Source: Escherichia coli
Lineage (GTDB): Bacteria > Pseudomonadota > Gammaproteobacteria > Enterobacterales > Enterobacteriaceae
Assembly (NCBI RefSeq): GCF_024502345.1
Contig: NZ_JALDNN010000001.1
Length of the DNA: 64,000 nt
Reading direction: 5' to 3' (one strand)
The notes below the pieces were generated by a model, which saw only the letters and a list, made by a program, of their open reading frames with translations, had not been told where the DNA came from and ran no database searches. Positions 24,771 to 57,322 of the stretch are shown one piece after another; position 1 is the stretch's first letter; every line of letters starts with the position of its first letter. Position numbers and translations under genes: made by a program.

Positions 24771-24911
24771 CGCTCGGGTACCAGGAGGTGACGGACCCGT
24801 ATACCAAAGAAAAATACTTTGAGTACGCCCATGACGGCAAACTGATGGGGCAGCTACTGATACCCTCGAACCCTGACAATCAGGAATAAAACAACGACAA
24901 AGGAGACAAGA

Positions 24912-25792: not shown

Positions 25793-26251
25793 ATGACAAC
25801 ACAGACGCAGCACGACCTCGCACCCGCTAACCAACCCGAATTTGAACTGACCGTCACGCCGGTCCCCGATGAACAGCGTATCGATTTCTGGCCACAGTAC
25901 TTTGGCGCTATCCCGCAGTGGCTACTCCTGGAGCCGCATATCTTCGCCTGGATGGACCGCTTCTGTGAGGGCTACAGCGGTGGTATCTGGTCGTTCTACA
26001 CCCTCAGCAATGGCGGCGCATTTATGTCCCCCGAGCCTGACAACGATGAGACATGGCGTCTGTTTAACTGCCTGAACGGTAACGATGCCCAAATGAGTGC
26101 AGAAGCAGCAGGTATTGCTGTCTGCCTGATTGCGTATAGCCACCATGCCTGCCGTACAGAATGTGACGCGATGACCGCACACTATTACCGCCTGCGGGAG
26201 TATGCCATGCAACATCCAGAGGCTCACGCCATTCTGCGTATTATCGACTGA
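25793..26251 (+). CDS. yafX: Antirestriction protein, KlcA/ArdB family (YafX/YfjX-like)
   Basis: 152 aa; ...IWSFYTLSNGGAFMSPEPDNDETWRLFNCLNGNDAQMSAEAAGIAVCLIAYSHH... typical of the family. Confidence 0.75.
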   Translation: MTTQTQHDLAPANQPEFELTVTPVPDEQRIDFWPQYFGAIPQWLLLEPHIFAWMDRFCEGYSGGIWSFYTLSNGGAFMSPEPDNDETWRLFNCLNGNDAQMSAEAAGIAVCLIAYSHHACRTECDAMTAHYYRLREYAMQHPEAHAILRIID

Positions 26252-26991: not shown

Positions 26992-27671
<680 letters not shown>

Positions 27672-28052
27672 ACATTGCGTACAACCTTCCCGATTTACAT
27701 TTCTGAACTTCCTCCCTTGTTTACCTATTGCGTAATGCGCCTGCTACTACCCGGCAGGCGCGTTATCTTTTTACGGACAAACAATCATGCAACCAGAAGT
27801 TGAAGTATTAACCGATCATAATGAGCTAATTTGTTCGAGCTTTATTGAACACATTGCCAACACATTAAATTTAGGAGTGGTGTACAACTAAACCTGCAGC
27901 CAAGGATGTATAGTGAGCGAAGCCCTATCAGGCCTTTTTGGTCAGTAGATAAGATTGATCTTCGTTGATAGAATTTACTTACACCAGCTGTTACATTAAG
28001 ATAATTTTTTGGTGGGAGAATGATAAGATCTTACGTAACAATTTGATTTTAA

Positions 28053-28068
28053 TGGTGCGATAATAGGA
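28053..28068 (+). repeat. Degenerate direct repeat of the thrW 3' end; putative distal att site of the thrW island
   Basis: TGGTGCGATAATAGGA versus TGGTGCCGATAATAGGA at 58981-58997 (one-base deletion), same orientation; lies ~380 bp from the ykfI-like gene end. Confidence 0.55.
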
Positions 28069-28249
28069 ACATAACACACCACATATAACCATTGATAAAC
28101 ATACATATTTTCTTGTTTCATCTTTATAAATGCCCCCTTTTGTGCCCCCGCCTTGGTTTTCATACGACTCGATGAGCCTTTCATCGAGTCGTTAATCTCA
28201 CCAATTTCTTCACAGACCGTGCAAACCTTCTCAGCTCTTTAAGCCCCCC

Positions 28250-28618
28250 TCACTGACGCGATCGGCTAAGAACAATATTACTTACTTCCCGATAAGAACA
28301 ACTGTTCATTAATCCGCATGCTTTCCTGGCATGAAGGATATCTGTCACGGTCAGATATGGCGCTTGTTCCTGTGAGGAAAATCCACTGCGATCGATACGG
28401 ACTAACTCATACTTCTCCACCAGAAAGTTGATAGCATTAGCCAGGGTGATACCGGCATCGATATGTTCCTGTATGACGGTTTCATCACAGAAAGGTGTAT
28501 CGTTTAGCGTCAGGCCATAATGCTGTTCCAGCAGACGACTAAGTAACATTTGCCAGATAGTCACGGGCGATAGGCATGGCTTCGCCGCCCGCATATTTTT
28601 TGCAGGTTGAAATTTCAT
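28250..28618 (-). CDS. Type IV toxin, CbtA/YpjF family (second, diverged copy)
   Basis: ...[67 protein letters not shown]... Confidence 0.8.
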
Positions 28619-28638
28619 TTTTTCTCTCGTGAAAGTAA

Positions 28639-28956
28639 TTAACGTTGAGTGGGATAAACGGCGATGTATACGTAGCCGCAGCTGCCAAGGGTATCGGCTT
28701 CGCAGGTAAAACCGTCGTGGTACAGGGTGACGCTGTGGGCATGACGAGGATTCAGTTCACCGGAGGTCAGCATCAATTCCATCTGGCTGATAAAGTGCGG
28801 GAAAGTTTCATCCAGTTTCCGGCATTCGGCGTCACTGAATTGACCGGTGTTGCTGGCCCGGTCAGCCAGATAATGCAGCCGGTTCCCTTCTTGCACAAGG
28901 CGGGCTCCCAGGCGCGGCGTGATATCCCGCTGCAGGCCCCATGTGATGTTACTCAT
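28639..28956 (-). CDS. Type IV antitoxin, CbeA/YfjZ family (second copy)
   Basis: [42 protein letters not shown]...; paralog of 26992-27309. Confidence 0.8.
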
Positions 28957-28975
28957 TGATAAACCTCTTTTATTT

Positions 28976-29197
28976 TCAATTCAGGGTGATGCTCATTAGA
29001 CAGGCATAAGGCCCGTTGCGATCCTGGCGGCGTTCGGCGTATATCGCCAGCACACCGGGAATGTCAGGAACCACCTTACCGGTGTAATGACAGACACTGC
29101 CATGCCACTGGTATCTGCCAGTGCAGAATCGAAAAATGCGGGAGGCCGGATGCTGACGGTAAATCGTCATTGCCCGGCGTTTACTGATAATTTTCAT
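28976..29197 (-). CDS. DUF987 protein (YeeT family, second copy)
   Basis: MKIISKRRAMTIYRQHPASRIFRFCTGRYQWHGSVCHYTGKVVPDIPGVLAIYAERRQ... Confidence 0.75.
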   Translation of the reverse strand: MKIISKRRAMTIYRQHPASRIFRFCTGRYQWHGSVCHYTGKVVPDIPGVLAIYAERRQDRNGPYACLMSITLN

Positions 29198-29205
29198 GTC
29201 ATACC

Positions 29206-29688
29206 TCAAAGCAAACCGTGTTCAGCGAACGACAATATCTGCGTGCCACCGACGATGAGATGGTCAGGCACACGGATATCAACGAGCTGAAGCGCCTGCA
29301 CCAGACGCTGCGTGACAGCTTTATCAGCCTGACTGGGTGTGGTGTCACCGGAAGGGTGGTTATGCGCAAATAACACTGCTGCCGCATTGAAATACAGGGC
29401 CCGCTTGACCACCTCACGGGGATGAACCTCGGTGCTGCTGATGGAACCGGCAAACAGGATTTCGTGGGTAATCAACTGGTTCTGCTGGTTCAGGTACAGC
29501 ACCATAAACTCTTCGCGCTCCAGTCCCGCCATTTTCAGTTTCAGCCAGTCACGGGCAGCCTGAGTGGAGGTGAATGCCACACCTGTTTCTCGCAGGTGTC
29601 GGTCAAGCAGCGTTAAAGCGCGTTTTACCGTGCGTTGTGCGGCCAATGGAAGTGCCGTAGCCTGTGGGATAAGTGACTGTTCCATCAT
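29206..29688 (-). CDS. RadC-like JAB-domain protein (second copy)
   Basis: HNHPSGDTTPSQADKAVTQRL motif; paralog of 26267-26743. Confidence 0.75.
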   Translation of the reverse strand: MMEQSLIPQATALPLAAQRTVKRALTLLDRHLRETGVAFTSTQAARDWLKLKMAGLEREEFMVLYLNQQNQLITHEILFAGSISSTEVHPREVVKRALYFNAAAVLFAHNHPSGDTTPSQADKAVTQRLVQALQLVDIRVPDHLIVGGTQILSFAEHGLL

Positions 29689-29696
29689 AAGTATCC

Positions 29697-30587
29697 TTAA
29701 TCAATAATGCGCAGAATGGCGCTGGATTCAGGGTGCTGCAGAACGTAATCCCGCAGGCGGTAATAGTGTTCAGTCATGGCATTGCATTCGGTGCGACAGG
29801 TGTGATGGCTGTATTCAATCAGGCAGACAGTGATACCTGCGGCTTCCGCGCTCATTTGCGCACTATTGCCGTTCATGCCGTTGAACAGGTGCCATTTATC
29901 GTCACCGTCAGCATCAGGGGCCATAAACGCTCCGCCATTGCTGAGCGTATAAAAGGACCAGATACCGAAAGTCATCTCCGACTGGCTGCCGAAGCGAACT
30001 CCGGCGCGGATATGCTGTGCGCTACCGTCACCAAAGTTCACGTAGCCTCCATTGTCATGACCGTTATTCAGGGACAGCCCCTGCCAGATATACTGAAGCT
30101 GCGGCTCCAGTATCAGGCCATTGGTCACACTGAACGGCAGACCCGTTTCCAGCGAACCCAGCCAGCCCCAGCCGTGGGTAGCGAAACTGTCTGCATCAGA
30201 CGTCGCTTTCAGGTTATGACGGGAGCCCTGAGCCACCACATCTGTCCACAGGCCGCTGGCGGCATGCACGGCGGTCAGATAACCGCCCAGGCTGTACACA
30301 TCATCACGGGCACTCCCGGCACGGGAGCGGTCATCGTCTTTTATATCAACAGAAGAATGTCCCGCTGCACCATACACACCGGCTTTCAGCGAAGAGTTGC
30401 TCAGCAAGTCGCCGCCCAGTTGTACAAAGCCGTAGCTGCCGCTGCTTTCCGGTATCGCACCCTGCGCAATTCCGCCGTTATTTTCATGCCCCATATGACC
30501 ACCCTGGATGCGCCCCCAGACTCCGCTGCCACCTTTGACCGCGCTGCGCTGGTTGTAGCTACCTGCCAGTGCGCGGTCATAGTCCAT
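29697..30587 (-). pseudogene. Chimeric ORF: autotransporter beta-barrel-like fragment (Ag43/Flu-like) fused in frame to the C-terminal ~87 aa of a KlcA-family antirestriction protein
   Basis: N-terminal ~200 aa with beta-barrel-like alternating aromatics (YGFVQLGGD, GGYLTAVHAASGLW) ending ...GSQSEMTFG, then IWSFYTLSNGGAFMAPDADGDD... matching the KlcA paralog from its residue ~66. Confidence 0.6.
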
Positions 30588-30646
30588 GCTCTGCGCAAAC
30601 AGCGAAGCATAAAGAGCAACTTCAGCACGATAGCCAGCTTCGCTGG

Positions 30647-31012
30647 TCAGATACCCACAGCTTCACCCGCCAGACAGGGCGCGTCGTTGCAGTTCAGCAG
30701 CAGGCTGACCAGTCGACGGTCCAGCCCCGGAAACAGATCGGCTACACCTGTACGATGAGCGAAGGTCAGCACATCCAGCTCGGCCTGCGCACCACTCACG
30801 CCCGTCCGCAGGCGGTAACAACCGTTGCTACATTCAAGATCCAGATACATCAGCCGTTCGCGAAAATCGCGGTACAGAGTACGAGCAGATACACCAAACT
30901 CTGCTGTCAGCCTGCGCATATTCAGCGTTTCACCTGCAACGAGGCGACTGATAATCAGCGACAGCCTGATCGCCAGCCTGTCGTGGCGGCGCTCTGTCTG
31001 TGTCATTATCAT
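30647..31012 (-). pseudogene. HTH transcriptional regulator fragment (N-terminal domain of a YfjR-like regulator), C-terminally truncated
   Basis: 121 aa with [26 protein letters not shown], similar to the N-terminus of the WYL regulator at 37105. Confidence 0.55.
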
Positions 31013-31232
31013 TTCTCCATACGAGTTAACTGACTGAAAGGGTTATGATTCTAAAGAAGGGGTCTGACAGGGTATGTCCGGGGCAATAACTATTTTTCGA
31101 TGGACAGGAAGCCACTGCTCACTGGGTAAGCCGGGGTTTTTGTTCAATTAATCAGCAATACAAGAAGAGGTGAATTGACAGGGCATGTCATTCTTTAACG
31201 AGGCATTAACTTTTCAGATGCAGAATCTGAAT

Positions 31233-32060
31233 TTAAACAGACTGAAACTGTGACAACATCGTTTCCGCCATCACCCACAGCGCACGGTTGAGTTTTACGT
31301 CCCCGTCAATGCCACGCACCGCACGGGTATGCGTTCGCCCGCCTTTAGCATTACGTCCACTAAGCCCGCCCTTAATCAGGTTTTCCTGTACACGCTGATA
31401 AGTGGTCCACAGATCATTGCTCTCATCCTGCCAGCGGCGTGGGGAGAGTATCTGCGATTCATTAACAGGCTGGTGGTCCTCACCAAAGCGATACGTAAGC
31501 GCTGCTTTAGCAAGTGCCTGCTGCGCAGGTGGCGGTAGCATCAGAGACTGCATGGCATCGCGTTTCTCTTCCACCCGGTCAAAAATCCCAAGCACTTCAT
31601 AAGCCCCTTCAATCACCTGACTCACCACATCACCTTTGTGTGGTACCCGCACCTCACCAAACGACTCACCGCAGACAAGCCCGTTCTGACACACCGCACG
31701 AAATAATCCCGGCAGCATTTGATACGAACTGGTGCCATCATGAGAGTTAAGCAGAATGATTTCCGGCACCTGTTTACCTGTAATTTGCCCCTCCCGACGC
31801 AGGCGAAGCATGTGCTTGGTGTGTTCCCGACGCCCCGGGTCACGCACGCGGGTCTGACAGGCAAAGAATGGCTGAAAGCCTTCGCGCTGCAGGTTGTCCA
31901 GCAGGGATATGGTTGGAATATAGGTATAACGTTCGCTGCGGGATTTGTGTTTGTCCTGACTGAAAACGCTGGGCACCACACGAAACAGCTCTTCACGGGT
32001 TAACGGACGGTCACGACGGATAAGATTTGCTGCGCCAAAGCGCGAAGCCAGACGGGTCAT
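31233..32060 (-). CDS. DUF932-family protein (YfjQ/YkfB-like, CP4-type island core gene)
   Basis: Start placed at MTRLASRFGAANLIRRDRPLTREELFRVVP; recognised as YfjQ-like. Confidence 0.7.
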   Translation of the reverse strand: MTRLASRFGAANLIRRDRPLTREELFRVVPSVFSQDKHKSRSERYTYIPTISLLDNLQREGFQPFFACQTRVRDPGRREHTKHMLRLRREGQITGKQVPEIILLNSHDGTSSYQMLPGLFRAVCQNGLVCGESFGEVRVPHKGDVVSQVIEGAYEVLGIFDRVEEKRDAMQSLMLPPPAQQALAKAALTYRFGEDHQPVNESQILSPRRWQDESNDLWTTYQRVQENLIKGGLSGRNAKGGRTHTRAVRGIDGDVKLNRALWVMAETMLSQFQSV

Positions 32061-32149
32061 AAGCAGACTCCTAATAACGGAAAACAATAATAGAAAGCCC
32101 TGCCGCACAGGCGACAGGGCTCATGGAATAAAAGGTTGGAATTAAATGC

Positions 32150-33013
32150 TCAGAAGAAGAAATCCCAGACAGCACGGGCCACTGATACCACGGTGGTGCG
32201 CATGGCCTGAATGATGGTCCGCACCGGAGTCGGTATCAGTGGGAAAGTACTCACCGTATCCAGCACCGCACCGATAGTTTCACCAAAATCAACGCGCGCT
32301 TTTTCCTGGACTACTGTTGTGCGAAAGGGAGGCTGCAGTTGCGCGACCACCGGGCTGCTGGCCTCGCGCGGCAGGCAGCGAATCATTCTCTCCGCCATTG
32401 TTCGTAATCCCCATTTAGCCCGGACCGATACGGCACATACAGGATGAACAGGCTGGAACAATTCATGCAGCAGGCAAATTTTACGGCTAATGTTTTGCTT
32501 CTGCTCTATGGATAAGTAACCGCCACCGCAAGTGGGTTCGGTCTTGTCCGACTGACTAATAACAAACAGCACCTTATGCCGGTATGACTCACCAATTATC
32601 TGATGATAAAAATGCTCATCCACCGCCAGCGCCCGATCATCGGCCTTGATCAGCCACAGCACCAGGTCGAGCCGGGGAAGCTGATCACGGTACAGCCCGG
32701 CATACTCGCTATCGCGTGCACTACTTTCCCCTACGCCGGGCAGGTCCACCAACGTCATAACGCGCTCGCCAACCTGAAGGCGAAAGCGCAGAGGTTCCCG
32801 GGTACAGGCCACCACATCGCTGACAGGCGATACCTCACCAGCAAACAGGGCATTGCAAAGGCTACTTTTGCCTGCTCCCGTTTTACCCATAATACCTATG
32901 ACCGGTTCATACTCAGTTATCTGTCTTATTTGTTGCAATAAATGCTCAGTAACCCATTCAGGTAATCCAGATACCGGTTTTAGCAAAGAAGAATAACCGT
33001 ATTTATTTTTCAT
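32150..33013 (-). CDS. P-loop GTPase, YfjP/YeeP/YkfA family
   Basis: GIMGKTGAGKSSLCNALF Walker A/G1, DLPG G3-like motif. Confidence 0.8.
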   Translation of the reverse strand: MKNKYGYSSLLKPVSGLPEWVTEHLLQQIRQITEYEPVIGIMGKTGAGKSSLCNALFAGEVSPVSDVVACTREPLRFRLQVGERVMTLVDLPGVGESSARDSEYAGLYRDQLPRLDLVLWLIKADDRALAVDEHFYHQIIGESYRHKVLFVISQSDKTEPTCGGGYLSIEQKQNISRKICLLHELFQPVHPVCAVSVRAKWGLRTMAERMIRCLPREASSPVVAQLQPPFRTTVVQEKARVDFGETIGAVLDTVSTFPLIPTPVRTIIQAMRTTVVSVARAVWDFFF

Positions 33014-33103
33014 AACACCACCCTCTTATTGATAATAAAAAGGCAGCTTACATAACTGCCTTTTTTAATCCTTCATAGGGATGATATATATCTAAAAAAA
33101 CAT

Positions 33104-34018
33104 TCAGCGTGGATTAAATTTTTGTTTCCATGCCAGATGAATAGCAAATTCAATGACTCTGGCATTTGAGATCCCTTCTCTAACAGATATATCACGAAGC
33201 TTATCATGAGTCTCCTGAGAAATGATCACGTTAAGGGCTTTATTTTTATCTGCGCGTTTCTTCTCTCGACTTTTCTGTGTGCTCAATGCACTTTTAAATT
33301 TTCTTATGAATAGTTCTTTTTCTGCTTCAGTCCTAAAAACATCCTCACGCCAGATAAAATATGACGCATAACAATATGCGATTTTTTCTTCTATTCCTTC
33401 AGCATGCCGATATTTTTGCAAGGTAACATTATTTTCCTGCAAATAATTCAGCAACCAGTCAATGGTCACCCCTGCTTTCCCATTGACATCAGAAAATAAA
33501 TTTTTCTTTGTGATTAATTCATTCCACGCATTATGTAATTTTAGGATGTATTGTCTGGTGTTTCCTTCAGAAATGCTTTTTACAACTTTATCTTTGATAA
33601 GCCGCACCCGAAGATTATGGACTGGTGGAATATCGAATCCTAAAGTGAATGGTTCATTTAACAGCGAATTTTCTGCCTGAACAGGGAATGTGTCTGTATA
33701 GGGTGCACAACTTAGGGTTACCTGTTCTTGATCTGTTTTACAAAGTAACCAGTAACTAGCCCTGGAATCTGTGGTGAACCATTCAAGCTCATCTTCACAT
33801 GGAATCTCTTTTTTAGCCTCAACCCGGGTGTTATTGATAAAAATATCTACTTCTCTTTCGGAACCTTTATTCCCACTCAATAATAAATTGCGCACTCTCT
33901 TTTCATAGTTTGCAAGATTTGCTTCGGACGACTCAGGAGGAATATCAATCTCGAATTTCTTTAATTTAAAGTACAAAAATAAAATGAGATTCCTTTCATC
34001 ATAAAATGAAACCACCAC
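33104..34018 (-). CDS. Hypothetical protein with C-terminal ribbon-helix-helix-like segment; unknown function
   Basis: 304-codon low-GC ORF, GTG start after AGGGGG; no internal Met; C-terminal NVIISQETHDKLRDISVREGISNARVIEFAIHLAW resembles a CopG/Arc-type RHH. Confidence 0.5.
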   Translation of the reverse strand: MVVSFYDERNLILFLYFKLKKFEIDIPPESSEANLANYEKRVRNLLLSGNKGSEREVDIFINNTRVEAKKEIPCEDELEWFTTDSRASYWLLCKTDQEQVTLSCAPYTDTFPVQAENSLLNEPFTLGFDIPPVHNLRVRLIKDKVVKSISEGNTRQYILKLHNAWNELITKKNLFSDVNGKAGVTIDWLLNYLQENNVTLQKYRHAEGIEEKIAYCYASYFIWREDVFRTEAEKELFIRKFKSALSTQKSREKKRADKNKALNVIISQETHDKLRDISVREGISNARVIEFAIHLAWKQKFNPR

Positions 34019-34431
34019 TACCCCCTTGTCACTACGTGATTATAGGTACAAAAATGCCCATTTTTGCACATTAACTCAATGAGTTATTGTTGATAACGTG
34101 TATACGGTCACGAAAATTTGGCTTCTTGAGGACTGGGGGGATAGCAGAGGGGAAGAAGTAAAAGAACTATTTGGGTTCTGGATTACAAAGGGATATAAAA
34201 CTCTAAGCGTAAATATAAACAGATTGAAATATCCATAACGAATTATGAAAAACCTTACTGCTTTATATGCATGAAGAGGGACATTTCAATTTCCAGAATC
34301 ACTTAAAAGGCTCATTATATTTTTTACATAACAACCGGTTGTTATGCCTGAACGCGAACTCAATTCCAAATTGAGCTCTGCCACACTAATAACAACCGGA
34401 GAATCTAATATGATAACTGAAACACTATTAA

Positions 34432-35626
<1,195 letters not shown>

Positions 35627-35650
35627 TTAACTGAAGACAAATTAGTTGAC

Positions 35651-35815
35651 ATGTTATTTATCACCACCCTAACTGGATTAACTGACAAGTGGTTCTATAA
35701 ATTAATTAAAGATGGTGAATTTCCAAAACCTATTAAGCTAGGGAGAAGTTCTCGCTGGTTACAGAGTGAAGTTGAAAATTGGTTAAGAGAACGAGTTAAA
35801 GCATCGCGAAGCTGA
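35651..35815 (+). CDS. alpA: AlpA-family prophage transcriptional regulator (small HTH)
   Basis: MLFITTLTGLTDKWFYKLIKDGEFPKPIKLGRSSRWLQSEVENWLRERV, AlpA-like; the IS5 right end lies 25 bp upstream of this start. Confidence 0.7.
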   Translation: MLFITTLTGLTDKWFYKLIKDGEFPKPIKLGRSSRWLQSEVENWLRERVKASRS

Positions 35816-49333: not shown

Positions 49334-50390
49334 GGCTTTGTTGAATAAATCAGATTTCGGGTAAGTCTCCCCCGTAGCGGGTTGTGTTTTCAGGCAATAC
49401 GCACGCTTTCAGGCATACCTGCTTTCGTCATTTTGTTCAGCGCTCGTACCAGGGCCATAGCCTCTGCAACCTGACCATCGTAGTCACGCAGTGTCAGTGA
49501 ACCCCCGAACAGCTGTTTTACCCGGTACATCGCCGTTTCCGCTATCGAGCGACGGTTGTAATCTGTTGTCCATTTCCACCGCGCATTACTCCCGGTCATT
49601 CGCTGATTAGCCACTGCACGGTTACGGTCTGCATATTCACCGGGCCAGTAACCCGCACCTTTTCGGGGAGGGATAAGCGCGCTGATTTTCTTACGCCGCA
49701 GTTCATCGTGACATAGCCGGGTATCGTAAGCGCCATCGGCGGCGGCTGACCTGATTTTCCGGTGGGTTTGCCGGATTAACCCGGGGAAGGCCTCTGAGTC
49801 CGTAACGTTGTTCAGCGACAGGTCAGCGCAGATGATTTCATGTGTTTTACTGTCAACGGCGAGATGCAGCTTACGCCAGATACGGCGGCGTTCCTGGCCA
49901 TGCTTTTTGACTTTCCACTCGCCTTCACCGAAGACCTTCAGCCCGGTGGAATCAATTACCAGGTGTGCGATTTCACCCCGGGTGGGCGTTTTGAAACTGA
50001 CATTAACCGACTTTGCCCGCCTGCTGACACAGCTGTAATCCGGGCAGCGTAGCGGAACGTTCATCAGAGAAAAAATGGAATCAATAAAGCCCTGCGCAGC
50101 GCGCAGGGTCAGCCTGAATACGCGTTTAATGACCAGCACAGTCGTGATGGCAAGGTCAGAATAGCGCTGAGGTCTGCCTCGTGAAGAAGGTGTTGCTGAC
50201 TCATACCAGGCCTGAATAGCTTCATCATCCAGCCAGAAAGTTATGGAGCCACGGTTGATGAGGGCTTTATTGTAGGTGGGCCAGTTGGTGATTTTGAACT
50301 TTTGCTTTGCCACGGAACGGTCTGCGTTGTCGGGAAGATACGTGATCTGATCCTTCAACTCAGCAAAAGTTCGATTTATTCAACAAAGCC
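49334..50390 (-). mobile_element. IS903-group element, copy 2, inverted relative to copy 1, with 9-bp TSD CCTTATCCC
   Basis: Same terminal repeats as copy 1; CCTTATCCC at 49325-49333 and 50391-50399. Confidence 0.92.
49390..50358 (-). CDS. IS903-type transposase (copy 2)
   Basis: 322-codon ORF with translation identical to 38097-39065. Confidence 0.92.
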   Translation of the reverse strand: MKDQITYLPDNADRSVAKQKFKITNWPTYNKALINRGSITFWLDDEAIQAWYESATPSSRGRPQRYSDLAITTVLVIKRVFRLTLRAAQGFIDSIFSLMNVPLRCPDYSCVSRRAKSVNVSFKTPTRGEIAHLVIDSTGLKVFGEGEWKVKKHGQERRRIWRKLHLAVDSKTHEIICADLSLNNVTDSEAFPGLIRQTHRKIRSAAADGAYDTRLCHDELRRKKISALIPPRKGAGYWPGEYADRNRAVANQRMTGSNARWKWTTDYNRRSIAETAMYRVKQLFGGSLTLRDYDGQVAEAMALVRALNKMTKAGMPESVRIA

Positions 50391-55956: not shown

Positions 55957-57322
55957 TTAGATAACACCCTTATAAGGAACATGTACTCATCTAAAATGCT
56001 GTTACCGGATTATTATACCTAAAACAATGAATGCTGTGTATTATGAAATGTGATATAAGTCAATTAGTTACATATAAAAACCAACTCACATCCAAAAGGA
56101 TAGTATTTCGAGGTTTGTAGCATCATTAAATGTGAACTTATTTATCGCCCCCTCAAGTTAACTAATAAATAAGTTATAATTTACATATACTTCTGGAATT
56201 TAGAAACCTTATATCTAATAGTTGAGTAAGTTAATAATCAACATGAGTGTGATTCATAAAAAAAATAATTATTATTTTCAGCCCCTCCATTATGGAGGAG
56301 CAATAATAGTATAGTTTTCCTGTATTCCTAACGATCCAGTTAGGCTTAGAGAAATCTAATTATGAAGCACTCCTGAGAGCAACCCTTCCAACTTTATCAA
56401 TATAATCCGCATACCACTGCATCATCTCTCTCCTGCCTTCCAAATACAGCGCATGGTTGTACGTCCCGCGAATCGCATTCTTATCGACATGCGCAAGCTG
56501 GGTTTCAATCCATGCGGTATTGAACCCTTCCTCATGCAAAATCGTACTCATCGTGTGGCGGAAACCATGCCCCGTTACCTTCCCCGTGTACCCAATCCGC
56601 TTAAACACCTGATTAATACTCGCTTCGCTCATTGTTTTGCGGGGATCATTCCTCCCAGGAAACACCAGAGGATATTGCCCAGACATCACTTTGAGCTGCT
56701 GTACGATCTCCAGCGCTTGGGTAGAGAGGGGCACCAGGTGAGGCCGTTTCATCTTCATGCGCTCTGCAGGTATTTCCCACACCGCTTTTTCAAGATCAAA
56801 CTCACTCCAGAAAGCACCTCGAAGCTCACCGGTGCGAACCCCCGTAAGGATCAGCAAACGTGCGGCAAGAACAACCAGCGGGCTGCCTGTATAGCCAGAA
56901 AGAGCTTTAAAGAAATCTGGTAACTCCTCAACGGTAAGGAAGGGATAATGCTTCGATTCATGCCCTGACATCGCGCTGGTTAGATCCGCAGCCGGATTGT
57001 ATTCCGCACGACCGGTAACTATGGCGTAGCGAAAGACTTCGCTGCAGCGCTGGCGAACTTTCTTGGCCTTCTCTGTCGCACCACGGCTTTCCATTCGACG
57101 CAGTACATTCAACAGAACAAGAGGCTTAATTTCATTGACTGGCTGCTGACCGATATAGGGAAAAATATCTTTATTTAAAGCTTCGATAATGTCCGATGCA
57201 TACCCTTCTGACCATCTGCTCACCTTCGTACCGTGCCACTCAAGCGCCACAGACTGGAACGTATTATGATCTTACCCAGCAATAGTGGACACGCGGCTAA
57301 GTGAGTAAACTCTCAGTCAGAG

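Follow-up and report, generated by a model that had tools for sequence, protein, structure and literature searches.

The window analysed here is a 64,000-nucleotide stretch of Escherichia coli DNA (contig NZ_JALDNN010000001.1, assembly GCF_024502345.1). On its minus strand, positions 29697 to 30587 hold an open reading frame of 296 amino acids whose product matches WP_072215940.1 exactly, a protein named "antirestriction protein [Escherichia coli]" in RefSeq. The intact RadC-like JAB gene at 29206 to 29688 (minus strand) lies directly downstream and is the first gene of a retained RadC-DUF987-antitoxin-toxin module that has lost its native upstream spacer. On the upstream side, the same strand carries a truncated WYL/YfjR-like regulator at 30647 to 31006, comprising residues 1 to 119 of 228 with D29N as the sole substitution and with the WYL domain gone. 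An intact paralogous antirestriction gene, the yafX of a CP4-6-like island, is found on the plus strand at 25793 to 26251. Between the two antirestriction loci, CbtA-type toxin/YeeU-type antitoxin modules at 27267 to 27671 (plus strand) and 28250 to 28618 (minus strand) are arranged tail to tail, each with RadC and DUF987. The two modules are approximately 78 to 83% identical in DNA and together constitute an extensive, imperfect inverted repeat around 27.7 to 28.2 kb.

A preliminary description of this DNA had proposed that the 296-codon frame is an in-frame chimera of an autotransporter beta-domain and the C-terminal half of a KlcA antirestriction protein, with a switch between ...SEMTFG and IWSFYTLSNGG.... 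Pfam, NCBIfam and alignment to the parent genes all agreed with this structure. The Pfam autotransporter beta-domain was matched at amino acids 23 to 213 (profile positions 1 to 193 of 255, E = 2.8e-23), and the Antirestrict domain PF03230 was matched at amino acids 208 to 296 (profile positions 6 to 92 of 92, E = 6.4e-36), the latter scoring 122.8 bits against a gathering cut-off of 25. In the 948-position NCBIfam model of the Ag43/Cah adhesins, NF033177, amino acids 1 to 208 of the chimera aligned to positions 630 to 842. The chimera scored 319.8 bits in this model, below the cut-off of 1200, whereas the parent Ag43 scored 1289.5 and passed it.

Both halves could be traced to their sources residue by residue. 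Residues 1 to 208 were 100% identical to residues 634 to 841 of a 947-amino-acid Ag43/Cah protein translated from the undeleted parent locus, and the full-length family member WP_115626798.1 contains the same residues at 634 to 841. Residues 208 to 296 were identical to residues 66 to 154 of the island's own ArdB/KlcA-type antirestriction protein of 154 amino acids. The second half had previously been matched to the paralog at 25793; its assignment to the C-terminal half of a KlcA-type protein holds, but its source is the island's own gene, and the paralog is identical at only 69 of the 89 residues (78%). The proposed switch point was exact, with the codon for Gly208 formed by bases common to both sides, and the ATG of the chimera corresponds to the internal Met634 of Ag43. 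Since the halves match intact genes at 100% identity, chance is excluded as the origin of the composite structure.

The undeleted locus was sought by megablast of window positions 29600 to 31100 against 5,426 complete E. coli genomes. It was present in three chromosomes, those of strains Z226-5, Z226-6 and PSJ-29, at 99.8 to 100% identity, in each case as two pieces matching at 100% and spaced 659 bp wider than in the window. The fused arrangement itself was present in 0 of the 5,426 genomes. The Z226-5 locus (L001) was used as the reference for alignment of the window. Its minus-strand gene order is GTPase, DUF932, a WYL-domain regulator of 228 amino acids, Ag43/Cah (947 amino acids), antirestriction protein (154 amino acids), RadC, DUF987, YeeU-type antitoxin and CbtA-type toxin. 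The parent Ag43 contains an ESPR at amino acids 6 to 51, seven AIDA stretches, the autochaperone AC_1 at 498 to 602 and a beta-domain covering profile positions 1 to 253 of 255, and it ends in ...LKVAF.

Against this reference, the window aligned as three consecutive blocks: positions 27001 to 29966 with L001 6402 to 9367 (99.97% identity), 29963 to 30655 with L001 10023 to 10715 (100%) and 30651 to 34431 with L001 12950 to 16730 (99.84%). The first block includes the 3' part of the antirestriction gene, codons 66 to 154 plus stop, at 29697 to 29966 on the minus strand. The middle block is a retained internal piece of Ag43/Cah of 693 bp (minus strand). It spans a portion of the linker and roughly three quarters of the beta-barrel, without the signal peptide, the passenger or the C-terminal beta-signal.

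The fusion had been attributed to a single deletion joining two island genes. A deletion that does so was confirmed and its breakpoints were mapped on the intact locus, but it is accompanied by a second, larger one. At junction 1 (29963 to 29966), 659 bp were lost across the 4-bp microhomology TACC, and the region L001 9368 to 10022 is gone. This deletion takes out the last 106 codons of Ag43, a 140-bp spacer and the first 65 antirestriction codons, in agreement with the reported absence of the KlcA N terminus, and leaves the two genes joined in frame. At junction 2 (30651 to 30655), 2,239 bp were lost across the 5-bp microhomology ATACC. The lost sequence comprises Ag43 codons 1 to 610, a 72-bp spacer that contained a terminator-like hairpin, and codons 120 to 228 of the regulator, and the TGA stop of the regulator fragment was formed exactly at the junction. 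The regulator fragment, given earlier as 30647 to 31012 and taken as a sign of local decay, thus owes its truncation to the second deletion. The 41-mers spanning junctions 1 and 2 are GCGTATAAAAGGACCAGATACCGAAAGTCATCTCCGACTGG and GCCAGCTTCGCTGGTCAGATACCCACAGCTTCACCCGCCAG, respectively. Up to each microhomology, the flanking sequence is 100% identical to the parent. When deletion ends were drawn at random in the parental sequence, a microhomology of exactly 4 bp arose in 1.2% of simulations and one of exactly 5 bp in 0.4%, so both deletions appear to have been microhomology mediated. Neither junction was found in any of the 5,426 complete E. coli genomes, and junction 2 was also absent from the JGI metagenomes in an exact scan. 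No intermediate with a single deletion was found among the 5,426 complete genomes and 10 carrier contigs.

Further deletions relative to Z226-5 were seen elsewhere in the window. A third lineage-specific deletion, of 4,389 bp with the microhomology TAC at 24779 to 24781, has left the CP4-6-like island without GTPase, DUF932, yfjR, ypjK and the greater part of yfjS/yafY; its junction adjoins a truncated IS5-family transposase fragment and was found in none of the 5,426 complete genomes. A fourth, of approximately 247 bp with the microhomology ATA, lies at 45648 to 45650 in the region of arsC and an ArsB fragment. The motif TAC(C) occurs in all three of the junctions at 24779 to 24781, 29963 to 29966 and 30651 to 30655, and the simulated chance of three junctions having a common 3-mer was about 0.003, a post hoc estimate. 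In addition, the 8-mer CAGATACC is common to the left flanks of both Ag43 deletions, such that a direct 8-bp repeat bounds the 693-bp Ag43 piece.

The consequences for the product were considered for each half separately. The chimera contains no signal peptide or ESPR, starting as it does at parental Met634, and neither AIDA repeats nor an autochaperone were found in it by Pfam. Its beta-barrel is incomplete, the last quarter (106 residues, including the terminal Phe of ...LKVAF) being gone. For the antirestriction half, the paralog at 25793 to 26251 aligned over its full length to the structures of ArdB (2WJ9, E = 3.6e-71) and KlcA (2KMG, E = 1.3e-23), and alignment to these two structures placed the chimera junction at about KlcA residue 52. 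KlcA folds as one rigid globular domain built from five helices and five strands, in which helix 2 bears R29, R33, R43 and R44, while E47 and R48 lie in the loop preceding strand B (PMC2836571). Mapped onto this fold, the junction falls after helix 2, and the chimera lacks the elements ahead of strand B, namely strand A with helices 1 and 2. This first third of the fold includes the conserved residues R18 and E35 and the greater part of the arginine cluster. Because a translated product would have no signal peptide and would lack the final 106 residues, terminal Phe included, it would probably be incapable of secretion and barrel insertion, and the single-domain KlcA fold would not be expected to form because strand A and helices 1 and 2 are missing. 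With neither export and a barrel nor a KlcA fold, neither adhesin nor antirestriction activity would therefore be expected, and the product is most likely non-functional.

Signals for expression of the chimera were likewise sparse. No good Shine-Dalgarno sequence was found upstream of its ATG (...TTTGCGCAGAGCATG), and the GGAG-ATG start region of the parent antirestriction gene has been lost in the window. A simple sigma-70-like scan of positions 29100 to 31400 detected no promoter-like site on the minus strand, which is weak negative evidence. In the parent, three strong terminator-like hairpins flank Ag43 (L001 12607 to 12577, 9663 to 9636 and 9603 to 9584), one after the regulator gene with a 13-bp stem and two between Ag43 and the GGAG-ATG of the antirestriction gene. 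All three are deleted in the window, where no terminator-like site remains from the regulator fragment through the chimera, RadC and DUF987 to the toxin-antitoxin pair. With the hairpins deleted, read-through from the regulator promoter is possible and, with no promoter-like site found near the chimera, any transcription of it would have to come from such read-through.

The island that carries the chimera is integrated beside tRNA-Thr/proA at thrW, and its parent copy also encodes, among others, an integrase, a SIR2-family protein and AlpA. Compared with the parent copy, the island in the window has acquired five IS insertions and has undergone further deletions. An IS5 element of 1,195 bp (34432 to 35626), with a TTAA target duplication, is inserted seven codons into alpA, and an open reading frame at 35612 to 35815 restarts at a TTG inside the end of this element. 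Two IS903-like copies of 1,057 bp each, at 38065 to 39121 and 49334 to 50390, have 9-bp target duplications. The latter copy splits the large gene of the SIR2 family. This candidate defence gene encodes 1,210 amino acids in Z226-5 and is represented by an open reading frame of 1,103 amino acids in the window. An IS110-family element (39488 to 40849, 1,362 bp) and an IS3-like element (57268 to 58523, 1,256 bp) were also identified, the latter in the integrase gene adjacent to thrW. At the other end, positions 1 to 24000 constitute the locus of heat resistance, which adjoins the decayed CP4-6-like island and contains clpK, an ftsH-like gene, sHSP20-GI, yfdX1/2, hdeD-GI, trx-GI, kefB-GI, psiE-GI, an htpX-like gene and a protease gene. 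This segment was found at 99.8% identity in 77 complete E. coli genomes.

At least 23 contigs, drawn from NCBI, ENA and Logan, encode the sequence of WP_072215940.1; GCA_050022275.1 and GCA_001484085.1 are examples of carrier assemblies. Both junctions were identical in all 10 carrier contigs that were read, and in 9 of these the 119-amino-acid regulator fragment was called just upstream. Identical junctions across contigs indicate one clone or lineage. The protein search yielded no diverged full-length homologue; the sole full-length matches were identical copies with the same junctions. The remaining matches were partial Ag43 proteins and a few chimeras, the longest of about 515 amino acids, and the 947-amino-acid parent was not among the matches listed, so that a single-deletion intermediate of 929 amino acids may have escaped this search. 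The 75-amino-acid members of the 90% cluster of the chimera were rejected as unrelated to the deletion, their context being CP4-57-like with YfjT, ArsB fragments and a large AIDA autotransporter.

Among the chimeras recovered, P0105, P0108 and P0117 break in Ag43 at about residue 884 and continue in an antirestriction protein at about residue 98, while P0104 breaks at ~812 and continues at antirestriction residue ~99. In P0098, the break at ~884 is followed by the CbeA antitoxin. As in the window, the 3' part of Ag43 is in each case joined to a downstream island gene, with other breakpoints and alleles. The different alleles and junctions point to independent deletion events, and the pattern reflects recurrent decay of the Ag43 module rather than a selected domain architecture. 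P0098, P0103, P0104 and P0105 reuse the breaks at ~811 to 812 and ~884, with antirestriction, CbeA and a third protein as partners. In the classical flu allele, these two positions are possible hot spots for deletion.

Taken at the level of known families, the chimera is a mosaic. In comparison with the Ag43/Cah adhesins (NF033177; flu/agn43 of CP4-44-type islands), its residues 1 to 208 equal residues 634 to 841 of a full-length member at 100%, and the Ag43-derived piece lies where the gene is usually found in such islands, with the regulator on one side and the antirestriction/RadC/toxin-antitoxin module on the other. Lacking the ESPR, AIDA repeats, autochaperone and last ~106 barrel residues, it is a gene fragment and not a member of the family. 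Its C-terminal 89 residues are alike to ArdB/KlcA proteins (PF03230; 2WJ9, 2KMG; yafX/yfjX) and pass the Pfam cut-off, whereas the N-terminal 65 residues of such proteins are replaced by 207 residues of barrel fragment. A comparable truncation in a cryptic-prophage island is that of yeeR in CP4-44 of K-12 (PMC6480617).

Considered together, the sequence comparisons make it very probable that the chimera is a non-functional relic of two microhomology-mediated deletions in a thrW-integrated island. The ancestral minus-strand order would have been a WYL/YfjR-like regulator, Ag43/Cah, the ArdB/KlcA-type gene, RadC, DUF987 and the CbeA/CbtA pair. The 659-bp (TACC) and 2,239-bp (ATACC) deletions would then have excised the bulk of Ag43 and fused what was left to the genes on either side, the frame being kept by chance at the 659-bp deletion to give an open reading frame running from Ag43 Met634 into antirestriction codon 66. 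The alignment shows directly what the parental sequence was, where the breaks lie, that the join is in frame and which domains were lost, and local decay is pervasive around the chimera. The earlier reading of the frame as a pseudogene accords with the missing domains, the internal Met start and this context, and the N-terminal part did prove to be Ag43. That the fusion arose as an assembly or sequencing artefact has a negligible probability: the region does lie between two inverted, ~80% similar island modules able to confuse assemblers, but the identity of the junctions in 10 contigs of independent origin (NCBI, ENA and Logan) argues against it, as does the 100% match of the flanks to the parent up to the microhomologies. 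A working new gene, in which the chimera itself, or something shorter translated from within it, is active in antirestriction or as a dominant negative, is very unlikely. In its favour are the in-frame join, the open reading frame intact in all copies, the RefSeq entry as a normal protein and the PF03230 match itself, in which most of the conserved sequence remains; loss of the terminators could also permit read-through transcription. These points are outweighed by the loss of the first ~52 KlcA-equivalent residues from a single rigid domain, by an N-terminal stretch of 207 amino acids that is an incomplete, cytoplasmic beta-barrel fragment likely to misfold, and by the want of an RBS or promoter signal. 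Moreover, the copies are all identical and so offer no evidence of selection, and the other chimeras differ in their junctions.

How the two deletions arose is a separate matter. Both may stem from one complex template-switching event, in which the nascent strand left twice after CAGATACC and re-annealed downstream, a possibility that we consider real but clearly the less favoured. Both left breakpoints end in this 8-mer and TACC lies inside both microhomologies; all the contigs that were read have both junctions, with no intermediate among the 5,426 complete genomes or 10 contigs; and the third deletion, in the neighbouring island, is also at TAC, with the post hoc chance of a common 3-mer at ~0.003 as above. 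Against this, the motif was spotted post hoc and the arsC deletion uses ATA, the co-occurrence of the junctions is expected anyway if the carriers are one clone, and two deletions in succession, in a gene that was dead already, would be no less simple. We regard as improbable the broader proposal that the deletions were something other than random decay, arising instead from breakage or polymerase pausing at a specific sequence or from a single complex template switch. On this proposal, loss of the three hairpins would also have put the regulator fragment, reduced to its HTH part, into one uninterrupted transcription unit with the chimera, RadC, DUF987 and the toxin-antitoxin genes, and expression of the toxin module could be rewired.

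The chimera is thus best described as a fusion pseudogene produced by deletion in the ordinary decay of a genomic island, and the same kind of decay is known from other chimeras. The label "antirestriction protein" on WP_072215940.1 denotes a fusion of two fragments that is very probably inactive, and counts of antirestriction or autotransporter genes based on domain hits would miscount it. The two junction sequences provide a handy clonal marker for the carrier lineage. For E. coli, the locus offers a case, resolved to the base pair, of Ag43-bearing thrW islands eroding through microhomology deletions and IS insertions.
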